Origin: Shigella phage ESh20
Reading direction: 5' to 3' (one strand)
Sequence record: ON528730
Length of the DNA stretch: 64,000 bases
Each line of letters opens with the position of its first letter. Position 1 is the first letter of the stretch. This document shows positions 38,369 to 56,090 of the stretch, in pieces. The notes beneath the pieces are model-generated. The model was not told the origin of the DNA and searched no databases. It saw nothing but the letters and a program-made list of their open reading frames with translations. Both the position numbers and the translations under genes were made by a program.

Positions 38369-39472
38369 TTACTCAGCGTCTGAACGAACGTCAACAAGCA
38401 GTTGAGGACGTGTGCAGTATGGCAGCATGTAAGAGTGGGCTTCGAAGTCAATACCTTCGTCACGGTCTTTCTCATATTCGAACACATACAGTTCCTGACC
38501 CAGAGTGTTTGCATAACCCATCTTAGGACATGGAGCGTAAGCAACTTCGAAGATGTTGTTAGCTTCACCTAACATTGCTACGTTAGGGAATGCGTGACCT
38601 ACACCAACATTAGTATCAGATACACCGTCAATGCTAACCAGAGTATGAGTCTTACCACGCTTATCTTTGAACTTACCGTTGTACTGTACGAATACAACAC
38701 CACCGTAGTAGAAGCGGTTCATGTGAGCCTGAACACCATCAGTACCACCAGTTCTCAGAGAACCAGTAATCTGTTGCCAAGCCAGCGGAGTCTGTTGTGC
38801 AAGGTATGCGTCACGAATCTTAGGATGCTTGATAAGCTTGCTGAAGAAAGTTCTGTCAACAACGATGTGAATTTCTTCACCGTTGATTACAGTACCCGTC
38901 TTAGCTTCATCTTCCATGTGCATACGCAGGTCTTCGATGTGTGCATCGATATCAGAGTTCGGGTTGTCCAAGTCGAAGTAGATAGTCTTCTTAGTTACAT
39001 CAAACTGCTTGTACAGGTCTGCGTACAGAACACCGTTAGCGTCGATAACTTTACCCTTCAGAGCTTGCATAAACAAGAACTCACGAGTAATATCAAACTT
39101 GGTACGAATCTTCATCAGCTTCTTAGCACGTACAACTGCTTCAGTAGTCAGTTCATTTGCAGTGCCTGGCTGACGAACACCCTGAATCTCATCAGGAGTG
39201 ATGCTTTCAACTTCCTTGAAGTACATCATCGGGAAGCTAATCTGACGAACACGCTCAGGAGCGCTAGTCTCAGCTTTACGGCTGGTACGGTCTACCGCAT
39301 CCAGTAAGCTGATATCCCAATCAGTCAAGTCCATCAGGAAAGTAGTCTGTGTTTGTGGAGCAGAACGGAACAGTCCCAGACCAGAGATATATCCGTAAGT
39401 ATTTGGAATAGACTGGACTTCACCAGTTAAGTCAGCAAGGAAAAATCTGCTTTTTTCAGAATTAGTCAACAT
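38369..39472 (-). CDS. Major capsid protein (lambda gpE-like arrangement)
   Basis: 367 aa following decoration-like and protease/scaffold genes. Confidence 0.6.
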   Translation of the reverse strand: MLTNSEKSRFFLADLTGEVQSIPNTYGYISGLGLFRSAPQTQTTFLMDLTDWDISLLDAVDRTSRKAETSAPERVRQISFPMMYFKEVESITPDEIQGVRQPGTANELTTEAVVRAKKLMKIRTKFDITREFLFMQALKGKVIDANGVLYADLYKQFDVTKKTIYFDLDNPNSDIDAHIEDLRMHMEDEAKTGTVINGEEIHIVVDRTFFSKLIKHPKIRDAYLAQQTPLAWQQITGSLRTGGTDGVQAHMNRFYYGGVVFVQYNGKFKDKRGKTHTLVSIDGVSDTNVGVGHAFPNVAMLGEANNIFEVAYAPCPKMGYANTLGQELYVFEYEKDRDEGIDFEAHSYMLPYCTRPQLLVDVRSDAE

Positions 39473-45611: not shown

Positions 45612-45687
45612 TGGAGTATCGGAAGGGACTCGAACCCTCATAAACCTGTTTTGCAGACAGGCACATAACCATTTCTGACACCGACAC
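45612..45687 (-). tRNA. tRNA-Cys (anticodon GCA)
   Basis: Acceptor GTGTCGG/CCGATAC, discriminator U, anticodon loop CUGCAAA, T-arm GAGGG-TTCGAGT-CCCTT, CCA encoded. Confidence 0.7.
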
Positions 45688-45693
45688 ATAATT

Positions 45694-45786
45694 TGGAGGA
45701 AGATACCAGACTTGAACTGGTACGCCGATTTCTCGGTTACTGGCAGTTTAGCAAACTGCTCCCTTACCTTTTAGGGTTAATCTTCC
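45694..45786 (-). tRNA. tRNA-Ser (anticodon GCT), type II
   Basis: 7-bp acceptor, T-arm ACCAG-TTCAAGT-CTGGT, long variable arm, anticodon loop TTGCTAA, 3-bp D stem. Confidence 0.65.
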
Positions 45787-45787
45787 A

Positions 45788-46522
45788 TTATTTGTTCAGA
45801 GCTTCTTTCATCTCTGGAGTTGCGATAGTATCAATCACACCAGTTTTACATGAATCATCAAACCAGCTTGGTAGAACATTCGCAAGGAAACCATTAATAT
45901 TTGTTTTCAGGTATTCTGCAATCAGTGCTGCTTCATCTGCAATCATCTGAGTTACTTCATTAGCATATGCAGTAATCTTTGCAATACCCTCATTAATCGC
46001 TGTAACGGCCTGTGTAGCGAGTTCAGAGATTGTATCTAGTCCTTGGTCGATTGCATCTTGCAAATCGCTTAGAACGCTATTTACAGCGTCTATGGAGGTA
46101 TTAATCAAATCCATCGCTTTATTACCGTACTCGGTAGCTACGCCCATGATACCGCTAAACGGTGTACATCCAACCTGTTCACCTGCTGCCCCCATAACGT
46201 TAGAGTAACCTTTAGCCACTTGCATACGTTGTGAAAACTCATCTACAGACTTTTGTCCATACTCAGTAAGTGTACTTGTCGTTGAAGTTGTACTTCCAAG
46301 GCTTGTTGTGAAGCTTCCTAATAAGGCTGTTGTCAGTCCAGCAGCAACTAAAATCTGTTGTGTAGCTGGGTCTGTTACAGAACTAATTGAGTTAACTAAT
46401 GATTGAGAGGCAGCTATAGTACCACCAAGAACTGCTGCACCAGTAATAAGAGGGTTTGAGAAACCATTACCAGTTTTAAGGAGATTAAAAATCTCTTTAC
46501 TTTGTTCTGTCATCTCTTTCAT
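45788..46522 (-). CDS. Hypothetical protein embedded in tRNA array (about 244 aa)
   Basis: ORF track frame; start moved to ATG 46522 to avoid overlap with tRNA at 46539. Confidence 0.45.
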   Translation of the reverse strand: MKEMTEQSKEIFNLLKTGNGFSNPLITGAAVLGGTIAASQSLVNSISSVTDPATQQILVAAGLTTALLGSFTTSLGSTTSTTSTLTEYGQKSVDEFSQRMQVAKGYSNVMGAAGEQVGCTPFSGIMGVATEYGNKAMDLINTSIDAVNSVLSDLQDAIDQGLDTISELATQAVTAINEGIAKITAYANEVTQMIADEAALIAEYLKTNINGFLANVLPSWFDDSCKTGVIDTIATPEMKEALNK

Positions 46523-46538
46523 TATGCACCTATAAAGT

Positions 46539-46614
46539 TGGTAGCCCATCGGGATTTGAACCCTGTTCTCATGTTTTTCAGACACGCGCTTTAACCATAT
46601 AAGCTAATTGAGCT
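46539..46614 (-). tRNA. tRNA-like gene, tentative tRNA-Phe (anticodon GAA), imperfect T-stem
   Basis: Anticodon arm CGTGT-CTGAAAA-ACATG, T-loop TTCAAAT with only 3 clean stem pairs, acceptor pairing 6/7. Confidence 0.4.
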
Positions 46615-46621
46615 ATTAAAT

Positions 46622-46698
46622 TGGGGTGACCTACGGGAATCGAACCCGTATAGACCATGTTCACAGCATGGGTCATTATCCATTTATGATAAGGCCAC
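46622..46698 (-). tRNA. tRNA-His (anticodon GTG)
   Basis: Acceptor GTGGCCT/AGGTCAC, discriminator C, T-arm ACGGG-TTCGATT-CCCGT, anticodon loop CTGTGAA. Confidence 0.7.
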
Positions 46699-46729
46699 AT
46701 TTAAGGACTCTCGTAAGAACCCTTAGAAG

Positions 46730-46805
46730 TGGCAGCAGTATAAGGATTTGAACCTTAATCTTTCAGCTTCAGAGGCTGGAGCATTGCCAGTTATGCTATA
46801 CTGCT
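46730..46805 (-). tRNA. tRNA-Gln (anticodon CTG)
   Basis: Perfect 7-bp acceptor, T-arm TAAGG-TTCAAAT-CCTTA, anticodon loop CTCTGAA. Confidence 0.6.
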
Positions 46806-46811
46806 AATATT

Positions 46812-46890
46812 TGGTACTCCATATCGGATTCGAACCGATACATAACACAGATTTTAAATCTGGCCTCTCTGCCAATTGGAGTAATGGAGC
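46812..46890 (-). tRNA. tRNA with Leu-type anticodon TAA (tentative), short variable region
   Basis: T-arm ATCGG-TTCGAAT-CCGAT, anticodon loop TTTAAAA, Leu-like D-loop containing CCAATTGG. Confidence 0.45.
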
Positions 46891-46892
46891 AT

Positions 46893-46968
46893 TGGCGGGG
46901 GATGATGGAATTGAACCATCTTCTTCGATTTCAAAGACCGAGGTTTTAACCTTGTAAACTAATCCCCT
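46893..46968 (-). tRNA. tRNA-Gln (anticodon TTG)
   Basis: T-arm GATGG-TTCAATT-CCATC, anticodon arm TCGGT-CTTTGAA-ATCGA, A1:C72 mismatch at acceptor end. Confidence 0.55.
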
Positions 46969-47194
46969 AACGAACTCTTGAAAGAATATATGCGTTATTG
47001 CAAGTATCCTTATTTTCAGGTAGTGATGTTTCGAAGATAACTTGCTTAAGTTCTAATCCAGCAAAGTTATAAACAATCTTTCTAACTTCTAACGGGTCAC
47101 ATTGCCAACCAACCGCTATAAAGAAAGTATCTCCAAATCTACCTGTTTCAATCTTGTGGTCATCTTTATGTTTTTCAACTATGAGTTTATACAT
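46967..47194 (-). CDS. Hypothetical protein within tRNA array (75 aa)
   Basis: ORF track; fills gap between two tRNAs. Confidence 0.35.
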   Translation of the reverse strand: MYKLIVEKHKDDHKIETGRFGDTFFIAVGWQCDPLEVRKIVYNFAGLELKQVIFETSLPENKDTCNNAYILSRVR

Positions 47195-47212
47195 AATGTT
47201 ACCTATTAAATT

Positions 47213-47289
47213 TGGTGCAGAATAGAGGATTCGAACCTCTAACTAACAACTTCGTAGGTTGCTGCTCTATCCATTTGAACTAATTCTGC
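47213..47289 (-). tRNA. tRNA-Arg (anticodon ACG)
   Basis: Perfect acceptor GCAGAAT, T-arm AGAGG-TTCGAAT-CCTCT, anticodon loop CTACGAA. Confidence 0.7.
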
Positions 47290-47467
47290 AATATCCTTTT
47301 GAGATTCCTGTCTAGCTCTCTTCTTATCTCTTCTGAGAAAGCGTTTACGATGGTCTGTACGCCATTTGTAATAATCTTCTTCACCATCATGTGCTGCACA
47401 GCAGCCACAACTTGCAATTTCAACTTTACCATGTCTACCATAAGGCTTCATAGGAATCTCCTAAAAT

Positions 47468-47545
47468 TGGTGTTCCAAGACGGATTCGAACCGTCACTAA
47501 TACAAGGTTTGAGCTTGCATCCTCTGCCAATTGGGATACTGGAAC
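47468..47545 (-). tRNA. tRNA with Leu-type anticodon CAA (tentative), short variable region
   Basis: T-arm GACGG-TTCGAAT-CCGTC, anticodon arm GCAAG-CTCAAAC-CTTGT, D-loop with CCAATTGG. Confidence 0.45.
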
Positions 47546-47546
47546 T

Positions 47547-47621
47547 TGGTACTCGCTGAAGGACTTGAACCTTCTTCACCAACTTGTAAGGATGGAGCTT
47601 TACCATATAAACTAAGCGAGC
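47547..47621 (-). tRNA. tRNA-Val (anticodon TAC)
   Basis: T-arm GAAGG-TTCAAGT-CCTTC, anticodon loop CTTACAA. Confidence 0.55.
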
Positions 47622-47716
47622 TTTGAAGAGGTCTGAAGCTGTGCCGCTAACTCAACTCCGTGGAATTTGTTACGGTCTTCAGTTGACTCAAGCGGTCTTT
47701 CACTTGACCTCAAAAT

Positions 47717-47792
47717 TGGTGCTCCCACAAGGATTCGAACCCTGATAAGTTGCTTACAAGGCAACCGTAATAGCCAATTATACGATAAGAGC
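47717..47792 (-). tRNA. tRNA-Thr (anticodon TGT)
   Basis: T-loop TTCGAAT, anticodon arm GTTGC-CTTGTAA-GCAAC, acceptor with two G:U pairs. Confidence 0.55.
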
Positions 47793-47798
47793 ATTATT

Positions 47799-47873
47799 TG
47801 GAGCATCCAGAGGGAATCGAACCCTCAACCTCAGTTTGGAAGACTGTAATTTTCCCGTTTAAACTATGGATGC
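47799..47873 (-). tRNA. tRNA-Gly (anticodon TCC)
   Basis: Perfect acceptor GCATCCA, T-arm GAGGG-TTCGATT-CCCTC, anticodon loop CTTCCAA. Confidence 0.7.
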
Positions 47874-47879
47874 ACTAAT

Positions 47880-47955
47880 TGGTGGAGAAGCAGGGAATTG
47901 AACCCTGTACTTAAGTTTGCAAAACTTATGTTTTAACCATGTAAACTACATCCCC
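47880..47955 (-). tRNA. tRNA-Ala (anticodon TGC)
   Basis: T-arm CAGGG-TTCAATT-CCCTG, anticodon loop TTTGCAA, G3:U70 wobble pair characteristic of tRNA-Ala. Confidence 0.7.
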
Positions 47956-47961
47956 ATTGTT

Positions 47962-48037
47962 TGGTACAGGTGGAGGGAATTGAACCCATCATCTTACTGA
48001 TTAAGAGTCAGCCGCATAACCATTTTGCTACACCTGC
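47962..48037 (-). tRNA. tRNA-Lys (anticodon CTT), T-stem with only 3 clean pairs
   Basis: Acceptor GCAGGTG/CACCTGT, anticodon arm CTGA-CTCTTAA-TCAG, T-loop TTCAATT. Confidence 0.5.
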
Positions 48038-48043
48038 ATTAAT

Positions 48044-48120
48044 TTGGTACACCTAGAGAGATTCGAACTCACACTGAGCAGATTCTAAGTCTGCTGCCTC
48101 TTCCAATTGGGCTATAGGTG
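48044..48120 (-). tRNA. tRNA with Leu-type anticodon TAG (tentative), short variable region
   Basis: Anticodon arm GCAGA-CTTAGAA-TCTGC, 3-bp D stem with loop CAATTGGAAGA. Confidence 0.45.
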
Positions 48121-48376
48121 CATTAAATCTTTGTAGAGAACTGCTAAGACGCCAAAGCAACAATGGTATCAAATGCCTTAACAATTCTCTAAAAAGACCT
48201 ATTGGCCTTTGCATAGTCTTGCTTAATCCGGTGACTAGAACCTTTGGAGAGCTTGATACTATCTCTTCTCCGTGACACCTACTAGGTGCTTTACCAGTGC
48301 CGTGTACGCCAATACACGAAGAGGAAACCTGAAACACTTGCTCGAACAAATAGTCTCAGCTTTAAATCTTATTAGG

Positions 48377-48464
48377 CGGTAGATAAAGGAGTCGAACCCT
48401 CACCGTATCTCTACAATGGCAATAGTTTTCAAGACTATTTGGCTTCCATTAGCCGCTACCTACC
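48377..48464 (-). tRNA. tRNA-Ser (anticodon TGA), type II, CCA not encoded
   Basis: T-loop TTCGACT, long variable region, anticodon arm ATAGT-CTTGAAA-ACTAT, acceptor GGTAGGT/ATCTACC. Confidence 0.5.
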
Positions 48465-48477
48465 CCTAATAAGACTT

Positions 48478-48560
48478 TGGCATGGGACGGAGGATTCGAA
48501 CCCCTTTGAGTAAGTTTTGGAGGCTTACGCACATGCCTTAGTGTCTTAACATCGTCCCAT
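48478..48560 (-). tRNA. tRNA-Trp (anticodon CCA), enlarged D region
   Basis: Perfect 7-bp acceptor ATGGGAC/GTCCCAT, T-loop TTCGAAT, anticodon loop CTCCAAA, about 8 extra nt in D region. Confidence 0.5.
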
Positions 48561-48724
48561 ACTATATTTCGAAGCTTACCCTGTTATCTCAACACTGTCA
48601 AGCTTCTTCTCAGATTATTTACATGTTCTGGAAAACATGAGATACAGACCACCTCCTTATGAGATTGACTCTTTCAAGTCAATGCGGAGACCCATAAAGG
48701 TCGTCATAGTAATCTGCTAACTAA

Positions 48725-48843
48725 TTGGCAGTCAAGGTAGGAGTCGAACCTACTTACTATTAAAGGGAGCTACCCTTCAGCAACTATCCGACTTTCGTTT
48801 ATCTCTTAACGCGTATCCAAGATAACTTACTCGTGTTGTCTTG
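48725..48843 (-). ncRNA. tRNA-like element with about 40-nt internal insertion (not a canonical tRNA)
   Basis: CCA-rc and 7-bp acceptor AGTCAAG paired with CTTGACC 119 nt apart; canonical T-arm GTAGG-TTCGACT-CCTAC; no canonical anticodon arm identified. Confidence 0.4.
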
Positions 48844-48854
48844 ACCATTAAAAT

Positions 48855-48931
48855 TGGCACACCCTACAGGATTCGAACCTGTAACTGACGGTTTAGAAGA
48901 CCGTTGCTCTATCCGTTTGAACTAAGGGTGC
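48855..48931 (-). tRNA. tRNA-Arg (anticodon TCT)
   Basis: T-arm ACAGG-TTCGAAT-CCTGT, anticodon arm ACGGT-CTTCTAA-ACCGT. Confidence 0.7.
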
Positions 48932-49178
48932 ATTATCTTTAAAGGCTCTCTTAGAAAACCCTTAAAGATGCCCACTTTATTAATCATACCGTGGGCTAGT
49001 ACGCCAAATTCTTTAACAGGGAGTTGGAATACCCTGCTGGTGTTTAGCCTATTAAGCTACTGCCAGAAAAACATTATCGTTTGCATTTATTTTTAAGTTT
49101 TTAAAATAGACGCTACGCTAACGAAAACTAAGGTTATCTTAAAGTGGTCACATCTGAATGTCAACAACTTTATGAAAT

Positions 49179-49254
49179 TTGGTACTGGTAGGTGGAATCG
49201 AACCACCGATATTCCCTTATCAGGGGAGTGTTATAACCTTCTTAACTATACCAG
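49179..49254 (-). tRNA. tRNA-Ile (anticodon GAT)
   Basis: T-arm GGTGG-TTCGATT-CCACC, anticodon loop CTGATAA. Confidence 0.65.
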
Positions 49255-49256
49255 CA

Positions 49257-49333
49257 TTGGAGGTTCAGGTGGGAATCAAACCCACATTCATAGGGCTTAT
49301 GAAACCCTTGCATTACCTTATCTGCGACTGAAC
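49257..49333 (-). tRNA. tRNA-Met (anticodon CAT), elongator-type (G1:C72 paired)
   Basis: Perfect acceptor GGTTCAG, T-arm GTGGG-TTTGATT-CCCAC, anticodon loop TTCATAA. Confidence 0.6.
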
Positions 49334-49415
49334 CATTATAAGTTGCCCCTTTGTAGAGAACTGATTGAGTGGGTGTTTCCAGCCGCGCATGTGTTCTTCA
49401 GTTAAGGGGCGAATT

Positions 49416-49491
49416 TGGTAGAAGTGGAGGGATTCGAACCCGTCGCCTGTCAGATTAAAAGTCTGCCGCATCACCATTCTGCTACACTTCC
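49416..49491 (-). tRNA. tRNA-Lys (anticodon TTT), same T-stem pattern as Lys(CTT)
   Basis: Anticodon arm CAGA-CTTTTAA-TCTG, T-loop TTCGAAT with 3 G:C pairs. Confidence 0.5.
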
Positions 49492-49914
49492 ATTAAATCA
49501 TCTTTGCAGTAACCTACGCAAACCTTGCTAAAGGGTTTGTAGAGTCATCTCTTATAAGCTAATCTAGAATCATGCTCAAGAGACTCTTCGGCACTCATGG
49601 GACGACTGGTTAGCTCCATAAGTCACTGCAAAGAGGATTACCAGACCGTATTTATCTTAAGTGCTTCCATTACACCAACACGCCGTAACGTGTGAAGGAA
49701 TCGAACCTTCGCCTTTTCTTTATAAGAGAAATAGATTGTTTATTGTTTGCTGTAAACGGTCTTCTGTAAAATTGTTGGAACCAGACCAAGTTTTAAATTT
49801 TTCAAATTAAATTGGCTTGAAATATTAAAATTGCTTGCTGTATTTGGTCTTCTGCTCCTTTAAAGAATACTCGTAAGAACTCTTTAAGGGAGGGGCTAAA
49901 AAGCCCTCTCAAAT

Positions 49915-49991
49915 TTGGCGGTTACGAAGGGATTCGAACCCTCATCATCCTCCGTGACAGGGAGGTATTTTGACCAGTTAAACTACATAAC
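49915..49991 (-). tRNA. tRNA-Asp (anticodon GTC)
   Basis: T-loop TTCGAAT, anticodon arm CCTCC-CTGTCAC-GGAGG. Confidence 0.7.
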
Positions 49992-49997
49992 CTTTAT

Positions 49998-50085
49998 TTG
50001 GTGCGCCGTGAAGGAGTCGAACCTCCCGAGTCATAATGACAAGTGATTTACAGTCACCACCGCTTCCATCTACGGGATAACGACG
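49998..50085 (-). tRNA. tRNA-Tyr (anticodon GTA), type II
   Basis: T-loop TTCGACT, long variable arm hairpin, anticodon loop CTGTAAA, 3-bp D stem. Confidence 0.6.
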
Positions 50086-50154
50086 CATTTTATTCTATTC
50101 AGGCTAAGGACTTGCACCTTACAAATCGGTGAGCAATCGCTTCTCTCCCAAATC

Positions 50155-50231
50155 TTGGCGGTTAGTCAGGGATTCGAACCCTGTACCATTCGGTTAACAG
50201 CCGACCGCACATGCCTTATGTGCTTCCTAAC
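50155..50231 (-). tRNA. tRNA-Asn (anticodon GTT)
   Basis: T-arm CAGGG-TTCGAAT-CCCTG, anticodon arm TCGG-CTGTTAA-CCGA. Confidence 0.65.
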
Positions 50232-50315
50232 CATGTTAGTATTACCAGACCGTATCTTTTCATTTTTTGCCTATAAAAAATTTTAAGTGTTTGCTGTAAA
50301 CGGCCTTCTGTAAAT

Positions 50316-50392
50316 TTGGAGGCGGGTGTAGGAGTCGAACCTACCGATAACATGCTAATGAGACATGTGAGACACCCTTTCTCTATACCCGC
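50316..50392 (-). tRNA. tRNA with CAT anticodon and unpaired position 1:72 (initiator-like or Ile2-like)
   Basis: T-arm GTAGG-TTCGACT-CCTAC, anticodon loop CTCATTA closed by T:G pair, U1:C72 mismatch. Confidence 0.5.
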
Positions 50393-50479
50393 AATTCTTA
50401 ATGACCAGACCAAATCTTTTTTGGATTTCTATGCGCGAAATTGAAAAGTTTGTTTGCTGTAATTGGTCTTCTGTCAAAA

Positions 50480-50557
50480 CTGGCATTCCCGAAGGGACTT
50501 GAACCCTCAAACCACACCTTGAAAGGGTGTTGACTTTACCTAATTTGTCTACGGGAA
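50480..50557 (-). tRNA. tRNA-Glu (anticodon TTC)
   Basis: Perfect acceptor CGGGAAT/ATTCCCG, T-loop TTCAAGT, anticodon arm ACACC-CTTTCAA-GGTGT. Confidence 0.7.
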
Positions 50558-50563
50558 TATAAT

Positions 50564-50643
50564 TTGGTCTCCGTTGAAGGATTTGAACCTTCGACCCCTT
50601 GCTCCCAAAGCAAGTGCTGCTAAACCAAACTGAGCTAAACGGA
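50564..50643 (-). tRNA. tRNA-Pro (anticodon TGG)
   Basis: Perfect acceptor, T-arm GAAGG-TTCAAAT-CCTTC, anticodon arm CTTGC-TTTGGGA-GCAAG. Confidence 0.7.
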
Positions 50644-50775
50644 GATAATCTTTTTAACAACCTATGTAACAACTATAACACTATTTTTTAGTGTCTGTCA
50701 AGAGGTTTTTTAAAATAATTTGATTTATTTCAGAAAACTTCTTTTTCGTTTCTATGTAGAACATATTAAAGGGTA

Positions 50776-50809: not shown

Positions 50810-52225
50810 TTACCAATCGTAGCGTTCAATAATTACTGCTTTGAGCATTACGCTGATAGGGTCAAACTTCTCACCACCAAGCAAAGCTTTTAAAGTGGCT
50901 GGAGAGAAACCAGATACCATCGCTACACCGTTATCCTTTACAGACACTTCGCAAGTACCGTTACGGTTTGCTAAGTACCAGAATACCAGTTGTGGCATCT
51001 CATATCCAGCTTTCTTGTACTTTTCTTGAATTGCTTCAAAGTTAGTACGACCATCTGCTCCATCAACCTGATTAAACTGCATATCAGAGAAGATGATAAG
51101 CTTACTAGGCATCTCTTTCTGAGTCAAGTTGTTTTTAACACCAGTCTCAAGGATTCTTGCAAAAGCAGCTTGTAGGTCAGTTGAACCATACTCTACATGA
51201 CTCTTCACTTGACGTAAGCGAGTCTGTAAATCACCACTCAATGTGATGAAGTGAGGTCTGCTAGAGTAAACCATCAATTCATCTTTAAAGCAACCTGTAT
51301 TACGTTCTGAAACGTACAGGGCTAAAGATACACCAATGTCTAGCGCTGTAACAGAACCATGTCGCTCCCAAGTCATAGATGAAGATACATCTGCCATGCA
51401 CAGAATGTTCTCACCCTCTTTCATCCAGTTTGGTAAAGCTTTCCACTGCTCATTTGCAACGGTTGCATTACCATAACCGACTGACTTTGTAATGTCATAA
51501 GGGTAGACTGCACCAGCATTAATCTTTGTCTCACCTTTAGTCAGTGCTGCAATGTATGCTGCATAACGCTCACCATCTTTACGACTGAAGAGTTTTTGAT
51601 AACGTGCAGCAGCCAGTGAAGGAAGCTTGCTGTAATCAATCTCTCCGAACTCATTTGCTGAAATCTTTTGTTCAACAGTATCAGACAGTGCTGACAGAAG
51701 AACTCGATACTGCTTCTCTGAAAGATTTGCAAACTTACAGAAACGACGAACAAAACGCATGTGTCGTGATTTTACTCGTGGTAACCATTTTGCTGCCAGA
51801 GCCGATGTTGCAGGGTCTAACAGTGCAGCTTCTAAATGCTTGAAAGCATCTGTTTCGTAACGTGTACCAACAAAGATTTTAAAGTCGTCATAACGACCTA
51901 AATCAGAAATCTTGTCCATGATACGTAACACTTGGAACTCATCAAGAATCCCGTCAGAGATTGCTTTAGTAAGAGTATAACGGAACGCTTTACGCTCACC
52001 CATACCTTCTCGTGCATCTCGCATATGTAACAGGATTCGAACTGCTACATCAATATCTTCTCGCATTGCCTTGTAAAACAAGTTTGGAAGAACTTCTACG
52101 TTTGTTCTGCTTGAACCAGCAGCTTTGTAGAAATCTACCAGTGCAGACATTGAAGAGGTGTGGTTAACAGCACCGTTTTCAGTTAAACCTGCATGTAAAT
52201 GCGAGTGTTTAAATAATTCGCTCAT
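50810..52225 (-). CDS. vWA-domain protein with N-terminal domain of unknown function
   Basis: MIDAS-like DxSxS motif in ILCMADVSSSMTWERHG at about residue 279; 471 aa; adjacent to tRNA array. Confidence 0.55.
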   Translation of the reverse strand: MSELFKHSHLHAGLTENGAVNHTSSMSALVDFYKAAGSSRTNVEVLPNLFYKAMREDIDVAVRILLHMRDAREGMGERKAFRYTLTKAISDGILDEFQVLRIMDKISDLGRYDDFKIFVGTRYETDAFKHLEAALLDPATSALAAKWLPRVKSRHMRFVRRFCKFANLSEKQYRVLLSALSDTVEQKISANEFGEIDYSKLPSLAAARYQKLFSRKDGERYAAYIAALTKGETKINAGAVYPYDITKSVGYGNATVANEQWKALPNWMKEGENILCMADVSSSMTWERHGSVTALDIGVSLALYVSERNTGCFKDELMVYSSRPHFITLSGDLQTRLRQVKSHVEYGSTDLQAAFARILETGVKNNLTQKEMPSKLIIFSDMQFNQVDGADGRTNFEAIQEKYKKAGYEMPQLVFWYLANRNGTCEVSVKDNGVAMVSGFSPATLKALLGGEKFDPISVMLKAVIIERYDW

Positions 52226-52301: not shown

Positions 52302-52673
52302 TTATTTTTTCAGAGTTGCTACAGCAGAGAACGTTGGTTTGTTCTCCTGTGCTCCCTGCCCTCCATTTTCAGAAGGTTTTTTACTATCTGCTGCAATTGC
52401 TTTCATCTCACCTGCTGAGTGAGTCATGATGGTTTTACCAGCTTCCATCATGGACTTTAAGTTTACATCTTCAGCCTTTAATCCGAACTCTGCAAGCTTG
52501 TCAGCATTACGTGTGACAATGGCCTCAAACAGCTTTGCAGCATACTCTGCTGAGTTATCAATAGTCAACTGTGCCTTGACCAGTGAACTCTTGTTACGTG
52601 AGCCTTTGGGTCTACCTGATGGGTTACCAGATTGACCTTTCTTGAATTGGCCTTTGTTTGTTCGTTTCGTCAT
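52302..52673 (-). CDS. Small basic protein with GNPSGRPKG motif (possible DNA-binding or terminase small subunit-like)
   Basis: N-terminal KGQSGNPSGRPKGSRNK; function not verified. Confidence 0.3.
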   Translation of the reverse strand: MTKRTNKGQFKKGQSGNPSGRPKGSRNKSSLVKAQLTIDNSAEYAAKLFEAIVTRNADKLAEFGLKAEDVNLKSMMEAGKTIMTHSAGEMKAIAADSKKPSENGGQGAQENKPTFSAVATLKK

Positions 52674-53888: not shown

Positions 53889-53910
53889 GGGGCGAAAGCC
53901 CCTTTTATTT
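53889..53910 (+). terminator. Rho-independent terminator
   Basis: GGGGC-gaaa-GCCCC followed by TTTTATTT. Confidence 0.65.
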
Positions 53911-53924
53911 GTTAAGGATAGATA

Positions 53925-54293
53925 ATGAAAGCAAAGAGTGGAAAAGACTTTTATTGCTTCCTGCAATCTTATGTCCAAAGTGTTCAAGAAGGTGACAGGT
54001 ATAATCTTGATGATGTACTTCCGACACCCTTAACATGGCGTGATAGTAAATGGCCTGAAAAGGATATCAACCCTACCGAAACATATTTCGAATACACACC
54101 TAAAATCCCTCTACCAGATACTGAAGAACTTCTTTACCCGATGTTTCATATCGTTGGTCTTGGTACATTTTTGATGGATATTCAATATGTGATGGGTAAA
54201 GGCTATAAGATTGACGGAGTTGTTGTAGGTGACGTTTCACCGCAACACAAAGGTTATTTTAGACTAAACGCAAGATTAGAGGCTAAGAAATGA
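53925..54293 (+). CDS. Hypothetical protein, paralogous to N-terminal domain of next gene
   Basis: Shares the blocks EELLY and FFMDLQYA / FLMDIQYV with the first 120 aa of the 54290..55174 product. Confidence 0.5.
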   Translation: MKAKSGKDFYCFLQSYVQSVQEGDRYNLDDVLPTPLTWRDSKWPEKDINPTETYFEYTPKIPLPDTEELLYPMFHIVGLGTFLMDIQYVMGKGYKIDGVVVGDVSPQHKGYFRLNARLEAKK

Positions 54294-55174
54294 TTAAAGC
54301 AAAGACATATCCAGATTTTAAAGAGTTCGTTAAAAACTTTGTAGCGAATGTTAAAGCTGGCAAAAGATACGACTTCAGAAAGTATCAAGAGGCCGTTCTG
54401 CCTCTGACATATAGCTCACCGTGGCCTGAGTCTGATATTCCAGAAGTTACTGACTTCAATTACACACCAGACTACACAGTTCCATTTAGTGAAGAACTTT
54501 TATATTCAGTTGGTGCTCAGATGAGGACTGCTGACTTCTTCATGGACTTGCAGTATGCAATCATCAATGGGAAGGATGTTGACACAGTTTATTGTGAATG
54601 GTTGGCAAGGGTTAAACCTTTCTCCATGCTTAATGCAAAGTTGAAGGATGCAATCACACCTCCAGTTATTACACAGCAGCCAACTGACCAAACTGTTAAC
54701 GAGGGTGGAACACTTACACTTTCAGTTGTTGCTACTGGTGCAACTGGTTATCAGTGGAAGAAAGGTGCATCAAACATCTCTGGAGCAACCTCTGCAACAT
54801 ATACTAAGAATGGCGTAGTCCCTACTGATGCTGGCGCATACACCTGTGTAGTTTCTGGTGAAGGTGGCTCAAGTGTTAATTCCAACGCTGCCACAGTAAC
54901 TGTGAATGCACTGCCTGTGATTACACAGCAACCTACTAACCAAGAGATTACAGAGGGAGATACACTCACCCTTAGCATCGTAGCCACTGGTGCAACTGGT
55001 TATCAGTGGAAGAAAGATGATGTAGATATCCCTTCAGCAACATCTGCAACATATGAAAAGACACCGACTTCTAAAGCTGATGATGAAGGTACTTACTCTT
55101 GTGTTGTAACTGGTGTAGGTGGCTCAATCACATCCCAATCTGCCAAGGTGGTTATTAACGCAGTAGGAGGTTGA
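54290..55174 (+). CDS. Protein with two tandem Ig-like domains
   Basis: Two about 85-aa repeats each with ITQQPT...TLTLS..ATGATGYQWKK...GATSATY...Y.CVV.G.GGS. Confidence 0.6.
   Translation: MIKAKTYPDFKEFVKNFVANVKAGKRYDFRKYQEAVLPLTYSSPWPESDIPEVTDFNYTPDYTVPFSEELLYSVGAQMRTADFFMDLQYAIINGKDVDTVYCEWLARVKPFSMLNAKLKDAITPPVITQQPTDQTVNEGGTLTLSVVATGATGYQWKKGASNISGATSATYTKNGVVPTDAGAYTCVVSGEGGSSVNSNAATVTVNALPVITQQPTNQEITEGDTLTLSIVATGATGYQWKKDDVDIPSATSATYEKTPTSKADDEGTYSCVVTGVGGSITSQSAKVVINAVGG
54650..55160. repeat. Tandem duplication (about 255 bp x2) encoding the Ig-like domains
   Basis: Identical 31-mer ACTGGTGCAACTGGTTATCAGTGGAAGAAAG in both copies; approximate boundaries. Confidence 0.55.
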
Positions 55175-55641
55175 TAATGCAACTCTCAAGTAAAGGCTTA
55201 GAAGCCATTAAGTTCTTTGAAGGGCTTCGTTTAGAAGCCTATAAAGACTCTGCTGGAATCCCTACAATTGGTTATGGAACAATCCGTATCAACGGAAAAC
55301 CTGTAACAATGGGGATGAAGATTACTGCTGAACAAGCTGTTCAATATCTCCTTGCAGATGTTGAAAACTATGTAGGTGCAGTAAACAAAGCAATCAAGGT
55401 TCCAACTACACAGAACGAATTTGATGCACTTGTTGTAGAGACTTACAACATCGGTATCAATGCTATGCAGGATTCAACTTTTATCAAGCGTCACAATGCT
55501 GGTAACAAAGCTGGTTGCGCAGAAGCTATGCAGTGGTGGAACAAGATTACAGTGAATGGTCAAAAAGTAACTTCCAAGGGTCTACAAAATAGGCGTAGTT
55601 TGGAAGCCAAAATTTACCTTGACGCTGTTTATCCAAAATAG
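55171..55641 (+). CDS. Endolysin, T4-type lysozyme (GH24-like)
   Basis: N-terminal KGLEAIKFFEGLRLEAYKDSAGIPTIGYGT with catalytic Glu/Asp/Thr spacing. Confidence 0.85.
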   Translation: MIMQLSSKGLEAIKFFEGLRLEAYKDSAGIPTIGYGTIRINGKPVTMGMKITAEQAVQYLLADVENYVGAVNKAIKVPTTQNEFDALVVETYNIGINAMQDSTFIKRHNAGNKAGCAEAMQWWNKITVNGQKVTSKGLQNRRSLEAKIYLDAVYPK

Positions 55642-55651
55642 TAGATTAAGA

Positions 55652-55677
55652 GGCTCCTTCGGGAGCCTTTTTTATTT
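55652..55677 (+). terminator. Rho-independent terminator
   Basis: GGCTCC-ttcg-GGAGCC followed by TTTTTTATTT. Confidence 0.7.
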
Positions 55678-55679
55678 CT

Positions 55680-56090
55680 ATGGAGAAAACTATGAAGCTT
55701 TGGGCAAATGATAATGGTACTTTCAAGTACACAAGAAGTGGTATGAAGGTTCGTATTGCAGGAACCAAGTTGATTACGATGGGTGACAAGGTGTTCACAA
55801 AGTTTGTTGTTGAGGTCATTGAACGCTCACCTATCACAATGGCTAACAAGGGTTTCTTTGCTGGTGAACTGTACAACGTTGATGACAATGGCATGTTCTC
55901 ACCTTTAGGTGAAAGTTCTCTTGATATTATTTCAGAGCACCCCTTGACAAGAGAGCAGTTATCAGGTTACTATAAATTTCTACTTGAGCAGAAGAAGAAG
56001 TTACACCAGAGTGAGGCTACATACCATAACAATGAGTGTATTAAACTTCTGGATAAAATTGAGAAAGCTGAGAGAGGTTATTATGAATAA
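55680..56090 (+). CDS. Hypothetical protein (136 aa)
   Basis: ORF track. Confidence 0.5.
   Translation: MEKTMKLWANDNGTFKYTRSGMKVRIAGTKLITMGDKVFTKFVVEVIERSPITMANKGFFAGELYNVDDNGMFSPLGESSLDIISEHPLTREQLSGYYKFLLEQKKKLHQSEATYHNNECIKLLDKIEKAERGYYE

Follow-up and report, generated by a model that had tools for sequence, protein, structure and literature searches.

Two overlapping genes precede the endolysin gene

We analyzed a 64,000-nt stretch of Shigella phage ESh20 (ON528730), hereafter the window, which comes from a Mooglevirus of the Ounavirinae and shows ~98% identity to the Shigella phages ESh19, Sf13, Sf17, and KPS64. With essentially no differences, it represents one more isolate of the KPS64/Sf13/Sf17 species group. 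Both ORFs described in an earlier sequence-only reading were found where it had placed them on the plus strand, a short gene (53925..54293) encoding 122 aa and a long gene (54290..55174) encoding 294 aa. They share an ATGA overlap, conserved in relatives, and the short gene is translationally coupled to the long one. Fusion of the two products by -1 frameshifting was considered and rejected, since a TAA codon (54284-54286) lies two codons ahead of the ATG of the long gene, and the junction, GCT AAG AAA TGA, contains no slippery heptamer.

As had been proposed, the gene adjoining the long gene downstream (55177..55641, plus strand) encodes the endolysin, a GH24 phage lysozyme (Pfam Phage_lysozyme, 1.8e-38) that is annotated as such in KPS64. 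Its start is likely the ATG at 55177, as in the KPS64 annotation, rather than the TTG at 55171, and its Shine-Dalgarno sequence, GGAGG (55165-55169), is embedded in the final codons of the long gene, a junction that is conserved. A scan identified two terminator-like hairpins on the plus strand, each followed by a T-run. The first, GGGGCGAAAGCCCC (53889..53912), separates a 196-aa upstream gene from the short gene and is retained in 24 related loci, where both stem arms and the loop vary; the second, with a 10-bp stem (55648..55681), closes the three-gene unit. A scan for sigma-70 promoters returned fewer sites than shuffled sequences and none able to serve this unit. In phage Felix O1, transcription of the corresponding ORF36 (long) and ORF37 (short) is maximal at 60 min, alongside morphogenesis genes. 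The long gene itself lies outside the structural module, directly 5' of the endolysin gene, and the gene for the major capsid protein (MCP) is ~15 kb distant on the opposite strand.

The long gene encodes a capsid decoration protein

In phmmer searches of the PDB, the 294-aa protein matches chains 9ncf_S (E=6e-258) and 9c2d_S (E=2e-184). It also matches phrog_3995 (E=1.8e-166), and its KPS64 counterpart, gp94, is annotated as "putative capsid decoration protein." The product of 54290..55174 is the hexamer-center capsid decoration protein of the Ounavirinae, from the family of Sf14 gp20 and Bas63 Hex-Dec, and we refer to it as Hex-Dec. This is mostly known already and the structure of the family has been solved: Sf14 gp20 was located on the capsid by cryo-EM and mass spectrometry (MS), and Bas63 Hex-Dec by cryo-EM (PMC11821841, PMC12609058), the homologous Gp36 of Felix O1 was found in virions by MS (PMC3185647), and the variant with two Ig-like domains present in Sf13, Sf17, and KPS64 was named in the Sf14 study (PMC11821841). 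The sequence-only reading had asked whether virion proteomics would reveal a structural protein, and for the long protein the literature already answers that it is one (PMC11821841, PMC12609058, PMC3185647).

The capsid-binding domain (CapBD; residues 1-120, 54290..54649, plus strand) differs from that of Sf14 gp20 at a single position and evolves with a median dN/dS of 0.04. In Sf14, R79 and R107 of gp20 form salt bridges with Asp221 of the MCP (PMC11821841), and capsid placement and salt bridges have been described from cryo-EM of both Sf14 and Bas63 (PMC11821841, PMC12609058). R79 and R107 are both present in the ESh20 protein. The ESh20 MCP (367 aa, 38369..39472, minus strand), located by tblastn and translation, is a full-length homolog of Sf14 gp34 (PDB 9c2d_A, E=7e-251 over residues 1-367) with an Asp at position 221. 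By this near-identity, the placement seen by cryo-EM in Sf14 and Bas63 can be carried over to ESh20, where the N-terminal CapBD of ~118 aa would sit as a monomer at the center of the 60 pentamer-proximal hexamers of a T=9 head, with Arg79 and Arg107 anchoring it via salt bridges to Asp221 of three MCP subunits. The two I-set Ig domains would then point outward as a short flexible fiber. ESh20 Hex-Dec thus resembles Sf14 gp20 and Bas63 Hex-Dec in its full-length homology, the two arginines, the MCP aspartate, and its position 5' of the endolysin gene, but it has two Ig units, whereas Sf14 has three and Bas63 four. Its Ig region is far more diverged from Sf14 than its CapBD, which makes the gene a mosaic with a boundary at the CapBD/Ig junction. 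The closest counterparts are the two-Ig proteins of KPS64 (gp94), Sf13, and Sf17, each with an upstream gp93-type ORF, in a locus that is ~98% identical and has the same architecture.

Comparison with other decoration proteins brings T4 Hoc to mind, likewise a hexamer-center monomer whose Ig-like domains extend from the head in a chain, and PHROG profiles labeled "Hoc-like head decoration" do match ESh20 Hex-Dec, within the Ig region only (residues 119-288). However, the domain order is reversed, the capsid-binding domain being C-terminal in Hoc and N-terminal in the Ounavirinae, and the Ounavirinae protein, unlike Hoc, occupies only a subset of hexamers. There is no Hoc chain among the 57 PDB sequence matches of the long protein, which resembles Hoc in how it works without belonging to the T4 Hoc family. 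By analogy with Hoc, the Ig fiber probably serves in weak multivalent adhesion or environmental sensing, and adhesion to mucus or glycans, suggested earlier, is plausible on the same grounds. The Ig domain of ESh20 also matches chains 8zvi_a (E=1.2e-9) and 5lxk_A (E=2.8e-9), both deposited as "Decoration protein," which we take to be pb10 of phage T5. In contrast to ESh20 Hex-Dec, pb10 has one Ig domain and a capsid-binding domain without sequence similarity to that of ESh20. Members of the CapBD family occupy the corresponding genomic site ahead of the endolysin gene in Kolesnikvirus (Erwinia phages phiEa21-4 and Omen) and in Hafnia phage Zyzzx (profile E=6e-10 and 7e-4). Their C-terminal modules, Big_2 in Kolesnikvirus and a module without a Pfam match in the Hafnia phage, are unlike the Ig domains of ESh20, and the upstream anchor-only paralog described below is absent from these phages.

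The Ig array varies by whole units

The Pfam profiles Ig_3 (70.7 bits, cutoff 30), Ig_2, and I-set (51.7 bits, cutoff 23.7) all score above their curated cutoffs, each on two stretches of the long protein, in agreement with the earlier recognition of two Ig-like repeats. Unit 1 (residues 125-208, 54662..54913, plus strand; Ig_3/I-set) and unit 2 (residues 209-292, 54914..55165, plus strand; I-set) share 53 of 88 residues (60%, E=5e-32), and their DNA is ~70-77% identical, with a local alignment score of 90, where shuffled sequences average 11.2 (z=47). The tandem repeat is therefore real, but its period, previously given as 255 bp, is 252 nt, as seen in the 5' part, and reaches 255 only past a 3-nt indel; the unit is 84 aa. 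Identity between the units falls below the threshold of Tandem Repeats Finder, which passed over the array, whereas find_repeats and direct alignment picked it up.

Among relatives, Hex-Dec proteins of 210, 294, 377, and 461 aa carry one to four Ig units. Identity is 0.83-0.96 among first units and 0.80-0.93 among last units, and falls to 0.65-0.72 when units from different positions are compared; by this positional orthology unit 1 of ESh20 pairs with the first unit of all relatives and unit 2 with the last unit of two-, three-, and four-Ig relatives. As judged from these alignments, the two ESh20 units correspond to the conserved ends, first and last, of an array that varies from one to four units. 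Since they have orthologs in the first and last units of three- and four-Ig relatives, the Ig duplication is older than the split between Mooglevirus and Felixounavirus.

The two units do contain, as noted before, an identical 31-mer, ACTGGTGCAACTGGTTATCAGTGGAAGAAAG, at 54734..54764 and 54986..55016 (plus strand), the first copy of which encodes TGATGYQWKK. This tract could be taken as a relic of recent duplication, an interpretation that the relatives contradict. Identity is restricted to the Moogle/Sf13/Sf17 clade, while other lineages show two to eight differences, mostly synonymous, within the same TGATGYQWKK motif. In Henu11 and SFPB, which have a single Ig unit, the 5' side of that unit corresponds to ESh20 unit 1 (71/72 nt) and the 3' side to unit 2 (154-155/158 nt), with the switch at the identical tract. 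These one-Ig alleles thus arose by a 252-bp deletion with its crossover in the 31-mer tract. Similar chimeric units occur in the Felixounavirus loci that we numbered L025, L026, and L027. The array is a 252-nt in-register repeat, the copy number of which shifts between one and four by unequal homologous recombination between units, and the identical 31-mer of ESh20 is one of the sites where such crossovers occur.

The short gene encodes an anchor-only paralog

The tandem paralogy proposed earlier for the two genes holds. The short product aligns with residues 1-119 of the long protein in BLASTP (47/123 identities, 38%, E=2e-18), and the codon-aligned DNA identity of 53% is weak but real (z=6.4 against codon shuffles). 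It also matches residues 3-119 of PDB chain 9c2d_S (phmmer, E=1.5e-13), and an AF2 model of moderate confidence (pLDDT 73) finds in Foldseek only 9ncf_S and 9c2d_S, with a TM score of 0.67 and a probability of 1.0. No Pfam domain scores above cutoff in the short product, which ends after the CapBD fold, without Ig-like domains. Homologs include Felix O1 ORF37 and KPS64 gp93, the PHROG family (phrog_4463) is labeled "unknown function," and the Sf13 and Sf15 proteins are 100% identical to that of ESh20.

The paralog is intact, with 122-124 aa, in 232 of 252 phage records spanning three genera, and has a median dN/dS of 0.13 (pairs with dS > 0.2). An exhaustive profile search for the CapBD family recovered only 13 representative proteins among named phages, all of Ounavirinae type, indicating a small family. 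The same search found no standalone paralog in named phages outside Felixounavirus, Mooglevirus, and Suspvirus, and one further member, the divergent standalone protein P0093 (48% identity), encoded on an 87-kb contig. Twenty-eight columns are invariant across the paralog and CapBD families, including WPE.DI, LLY, and F.MD.Q, while the motif PMFHIVGLGTFLMDIQYV is specific to the paralogs and strictly conserved among them. The anchor residues of Hex-Dec have changed. All 13 aligned paralogs, like P0093, have Gly at the position equivalent to R79. At the R107-equivalent position, 11 of them have Gln, one has Arg, and one His, and P0093 has Arg. Neither net charge nor pI separates paralogs from CapBDs.

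In ~20 of the 252 records the paralog is a pseudogene, with ATG changed to ATA and an internal deletion of ~215 nt, and these phages are still viable. In a Felixounavirus subclade that includes SP116 and Z31, it exists only in this form and Hex-Dec is kept, so that the paralog cannot be strictly required as a chaperone. Matches in the REP phages and fKMPT1 begin at the same point, and these phages probably belong to this subclade as well. Altogether, the short gene appears to be an ancient partial duplicate consisting of the CapBD fold alone, held under purifying selection, in which the Arg79 anchor has been lost in every member.

Possible roles of the paralog

What such a protein does can be approached from virion composition. 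The virion protein list of Felix O1, compiled with a 25% coverage cutoff, contains Gp36 but lacks Gp37, the paralog, and proteins of 9.7-13.7 kDa were detected in it. Similarly, gp40, the paralog of phage VpaE1, is not one of the additional virion proteins named for that phage. Cryo-EM of Sf14 and Bas63 revealed no density on the other hexamers (PMC11821841, PMC12609058), in maps made with icosahedral averaging, which would smear out a monomer located on a three-fold axis. Neither the text of these two structural papers nor the Sf14 supplement mentions the paralog (PMC11821841, PMC12609058), and papers on Gifsy-encoded defense and on the C. rodentium phage contain nothing on either gene. From the negative proteomics, which for VpaE1 concerns those additional proteins, and the averaged maps, we tentatively infer, at slightly worse than even odds, that the paralog is a late accessory factor of head decoration that is absent from virions or present in very low copy. 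It might, for example, transiently engage capsid hexamers or Hex-Dec, rather than being a second stable decoration protein.

That it is nevertheless a second, minor decoration protein strikes us as unlikely, but it is the most serious alternative. The paralog could be an Ig-less plug of the hexamer centers that the long protein leaves unused, the 20 on icosahedral three-fold axes, or a competitor setting the number of Ig fibers per head. The shared fold and the 28 invariant columns fit this well, as do late co-expression and translational coupling with Hex-Dec, and the blurring expected at three-fold axes could hide such a monomer. In addition, the site selectivity of gp20 has been attributed to a shifted Asp221 at three-fold hexamers (PMC11821841), where a paralog lacking Arg79 might make contacts of another kind. 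However, neither the Felix O1 virion list nor the additional VpaE1 virion proteins include it, the other hexamers are without density in both cryo-EM studies, the Arg79 anchor is gone in all members, and one subclade has lost the gene. A two-part decoration system, in which the paralog would act as an Ig-less plug, bound either to the 20 three-fold hexamers or, transiently, to procapsids, seems to us marginally less likely still. If true, the plug would dictate the site and number of Ig fibers, which would account for the site selectivity of Hex-Dec.

Origin of the duplications

The sequence-only reading can be taken to mean that the short gene is the ancestral form, the downstream copy of which gained two Ig domains by a recent 255-bp tandem duplication in the ESh20 lineage. 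The tandem arrangement, the in-frame units, and the identical 31-mer invite this scenario, but we regard it as very improbable. Erwinia phage Omen and Hafnia phage Zyzzx, outgroups within the Ounavirinae, have an anchor-plus-Ig-like gene in the same synteny and lack the short gene, which is most simply explained if the latter is a partial, anchor-only duplicate rather than an unextended ancestor. Recent creation of the two Ig units is likewise contradicted, by their orthologous pairing with first and last units in relatives, a mutual identity of only 60%, a 31-mer that is identical only in the Moogle/Sf13/Sf17 clade, and the 252-nt period. A neighbor-joining tree of the ~120-aa domains does not resolve the duplication relative to the Kolesnikvirus split, and the argument on timing is therefore based on synteny.

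A functionless short gene, left over from duplication and decaying neutrally, as the viable phages with pseudogenes might suggest, is if anything less credible, given a median dN/dS of 0.13 at dS > 0.2, intact copies in 232 records of three genera and in P0093, and the strictly conserved PMFHIVGLGTFLMDIQYV. Finally, that both genes encode tail proteins, as stated in most GenBank records and by the "tail" category of phrog_3995, is hardly tenable, since in cryo-EM of Sf14 and Bas63 (PDB 9C2D and 9NCF) the long protein is seen on hexamers of the capsid, and the Bas63 study states outright that the tail annotation is wrong (PMC12609058).

Implications for Ounavirinae capsids

We consider it highly probable that the locus is explained jointly by a Hex-Dec decoration protein, an Ig array reshaped by unequal recombination, and an ancient anchor-only duplicate with, tentatively, an accessory role. 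With the long protein structurally solved, the finding mainly corrects its annotation, from "tail protein" to capsid decoration protein. Two small additions may help work on these therapeutic phages (Felix O1, Sf14, and the BASEL phage Bas63). For the published question of how Ig number changes, the one-Ig and two-Ig alleles offer visible breakpoints of in-register unequal crossover between units, which also means that fiber length can be engineered in steps of 84 aa. The other addition is the paralog, which is conserved, expressed late, and reduced to the anchor, and which offers a concrete candidate explanation for the restriction of Hex-Dec to a subset of hexamers.

The long gene encodes a known capsid decoration protein

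The window carries two plus-strand ORFs, at 53925..54293 (122 aa) and 54290..55174 (294 aa), which overlap by ATGA and lie where the sequence-only reading had placed them. As that reading proposed, the genes are tandem paralogs, with the short product 38% identical (E=2e-18) to the N-terminal stretch (residues 1-119) of the long one. The long product's last 170 residues consist of two 84-aa units (54662..54913 and 54914..55165, plus strand), and their predicted Ig-like nature is borne out by Pfam Ig_3, Ig_2 and I-set, all of which score above curated cutoffs with two stretches apiece. The units are 60% identical in protein (E=5e-32) and ~70-77% identical in DNA (z=47 against codon shuffles), so the claimed tandem DNA repeat is real, but it recurs every 252 nt, not every 255. 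The identical 31-mer was indeed found twice, at 54734 and 54986. Tandem Repeats Finder did not report the Ig array in the window because the units have diverged. Directly 3' of the long gene lies the expected endolysin, of the GH24 family in Pfam.

The locus is ~98% identical to those of Shigella phages ESh19, Sf13, Sf17, Sf19 and KPS64 (Mooglevirus, Ounavirinae). The 294-aa protein matches Bas63 "Hex-Dec" (chain 9NCF_S, E=6e-258) and Sf14 gp20 (chain 9C2D_S, E=2e-184), with one difference from the latter across residues 1-120. [quoted passage not shown] The 2-Ig form in KPS64, Sf13 and Sf17 is explicitly named in the Sf14 paper (PMC11821841). Both arginines are kept in the window's protein, and the MCP (38369..39472, minus strand), which aligns residue for residue with Sf14 gp34, has Asp221. 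Together, the PDB matches, the published structures and these kept residues establish that the long gene is already known and structurally characterized. By homology to the solved structures, the protein would plug hexamer centers through binding of R79 and R107 to D221, and would display two Ig domains. By analogy with T4 Hoc, the Ig fiber probably serves in weak adhesion or sensing. Outside phages, the Ig units (54662-55165) find their best PDB match in GhpA, the grappling-hook protein from the predatory bacterium Aureispira (9flp_A, E=7.8e-50, five stretches), and they match it far better than animal Ig-superfamily proteins.

Ig units are old and change in number by recombination

Across 28 IMG/VR loci and GenBank loci, decoration proteins of 210/211, 294, 377 and 461 aa correspond to 1, 2, 3 and 4 Ig units, in steps of 83-84 aa. 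Between genomes, first units share an identity of 0.83-0.96 and last units (2of2, 3of3, 4of4) 0.80-0.93, against 0.65-0.75 for units from different positions. By this positional orthology, the window's pair are the first and last units that relatives conserve. They diverged ahead of the Mooglevirus/Felixounavirus split and so do not stem from a recent duplication. Only in the Moogle/Sf13/Sf17 clade are the two 31-mers identical; other lineages show 2-8 differences, mostly synonymous, in the tract encoding TGATGYQWKK.

In the Mooglevirus phages Henu11 and SFPB, each 1-Ig allele is a chimera of two units. The 5' part of its one unit agrees with window unit 1 at 71/72 nt and with unit 2 at 52/73; the 3' part agrees with window unit 2 at 154-155/158 nt and with unit 1 at ~101/163; and the switch is located at the identical tract. 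These alleles bear the signature of a 252-bp deletion via in-register unequal homologous recombination. Two Felixounavirus 1-Ig alleles (L025 and L026, the latter from Salmonella phage SP116) show the same first/last unit chimerism, and a 2-Ig allele (L027) contains a chimera of unit 2 with the last unit. The chimeric alleles settle the question of Ig copy number left unanswered in the Sf14 and Bas63 structural papers.

Sf14 and Michonne have near-identical CapBDs and quite different Ig arrays, which suggests that the array also acts as an exchangeable cassette with its boundary at the CapBD/Ig junction. Compared with Sf14 gp20 (9c2d_S), the window's gene (54290-55174) is a mosaic, with an Ig region far more diverged than the CapBD and another unit count. 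Michonne (298-aa protein) has yet another Ig domain pair.

The short paralog is probably a partial duplicate and is under purifying selection

The sequence of the short paralog matches the CapBDs of 9C2D_S and 9NCF_S (E=1.5e-13), and the paralog's AlphaFold model (pLDDT 73, pTM 0.73) matches only these two chains in the PDB (TM 0.67, probability 1.0). It is present in 232/252 Ounavirinae records, encodes 122-124 aa and overlaps the decoration gene start. Its median dN/dS is 0.13 versus 0.04 for the CapBD, and it evolves at about twice the CapBD's rate. The Arg79 equivalent is Gly in all paralogs and the Arg107 equivalent mostly Gln, and a strictly conserved private motif, PMFHIVGLGTFLMDIQYV, is common to them.

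When 1.84 billion representative proteins were searched exhaustively with a profile, only 13 CapBD family members came back, including Kolesnikvirus CapBD-plus-Big_2 proteins and a 321-aa Hafnia phage protein. In Erwinia phage Omen and Hafnia phage Zyzzx the gene order is the same (small gene, ~205-aa gene, decoration gene, endolysin), but the syntenic position holds no short paralog. The ancestral decoration gene was thus already anchor-plus-Ig-like, and the simplest account of the short gene is a partial duplication. The lengthening of the second gene by duplication in the sequence-only reading, taken as a recent event, is contradicted by these outgroups as well as by the Ig units' positional orthology, and is very unlikely; that reading was correct in part on the identity of the parts and mistaken on their history. 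A divergent lineage keeps both genes (P0093 and P0094), probably on the same contig, since their only recorded contigs agree in number and maximum length (87,253 bp). GenBank records named "Staphylococcus phage SA1" and "Listeria phage LPML1" (OK283618.1) contain Ounavirinae-type decoration, paralog or endolysin sequences, that of LPML1 being 99% identical to the Hafnia phage protein; their Gram-positive host names likely reflect mislabeling or contamination.

In one Felixounavirus subclade, all that persists of the paralog is a pseudogene, whose ATG has become ATA and which has a ~215-nt internal deletion. The remnants in Salmonella phage SP116 (2808-3001 of its locus) and Shigella phage Z31 (2305-2498) share the same breakpoints. 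Hex-Dec is intact in SP116, and in REP-type phages and fKMPT1 most of the paralog is missing while matches continue through Hex-Dec. The short paralog is thus not an absolute requirement. The decoration gene of Z31 is broken too, into ORFs of 134 and 55 aa. Shigella phage vB_SflM_004 has many genes broken into short ORFs, including paralog, decoration gene and endolysin, which looks like sequencing frameshift errors and not biology.

In Felix O1, the paralog is ORF37, adjoining ORF36 (decoration protein) and ORF35 (lysin); by RT-PCR, ORF36 and ORF37 both peak late, at 60 min, alongside morphogenesis genes. Virion proteomics of Felix O1 detected Gp36 but not Gp37, even though it picked up proteins of 9.7-13.7 kDa; in VpaE1, paralog gp40 is not among the virion proteins additional to the Felix O1 set. 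Neither structural paper (PMC11821841, PMC12609058) mentions the paralog. Our preferred reading, held tentatively and at a little short of an even chance, is a late accessory factor of head decoration, either non-virion or very low-copy. An unrelated neofunctionalised role takes whatever weight the other readings leave. That the paralog is a minor hexamer plug or competitor lacking Ig domains, overlooked by averaging and proteomics, seems unlikely. A neutral duplicate in decay is scarcely credible, because the paralog is under purifying selection.

A conserved gene unit bordered by hairpins

Paralog, decoration gene and endolysin form a unit flanked by two terminator-like hairpins found by scanning, at 53889-53902 (5' border) and 55648-55671 (3' border). 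Related loci keep the former, with changes in both arms of its stem. In every locus compared, the stop of the paralog and the start of the decoration gene overlap. The endolysin Shine-Dalgarno GGAGG (region 55165-55179), formed by the final Gly-Gly codons of the decoration gene, is kept across the examined loci, and the start is therefore probably ATG 55177 rather than TTG 55171. A sigma-70 promoter scan of the unit found none convincing. Elsewhere on the minus strand, 24 tRNA genes cluster at 45615-50644, in agreement with the known tRNA arrays of Sf14 and Felix O1, directly downstream of a gene for a 471-aa DUF2828/DUF7788 protein (50810..52225), which adjoins a DUF5681 gene (52302..52673). 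For the 471-aa protein, the KPS64 record gives a vWA-type InterPro entry, and RefSeq gives "RNA-binding protein" in VpaE1 and Felix O1.

With the main gene already known and its structure solved, the advance here is incremental: an anchor-only paralog that had so far gone undiscussed, and a sequence-level demonstration of Ig copy-number change.
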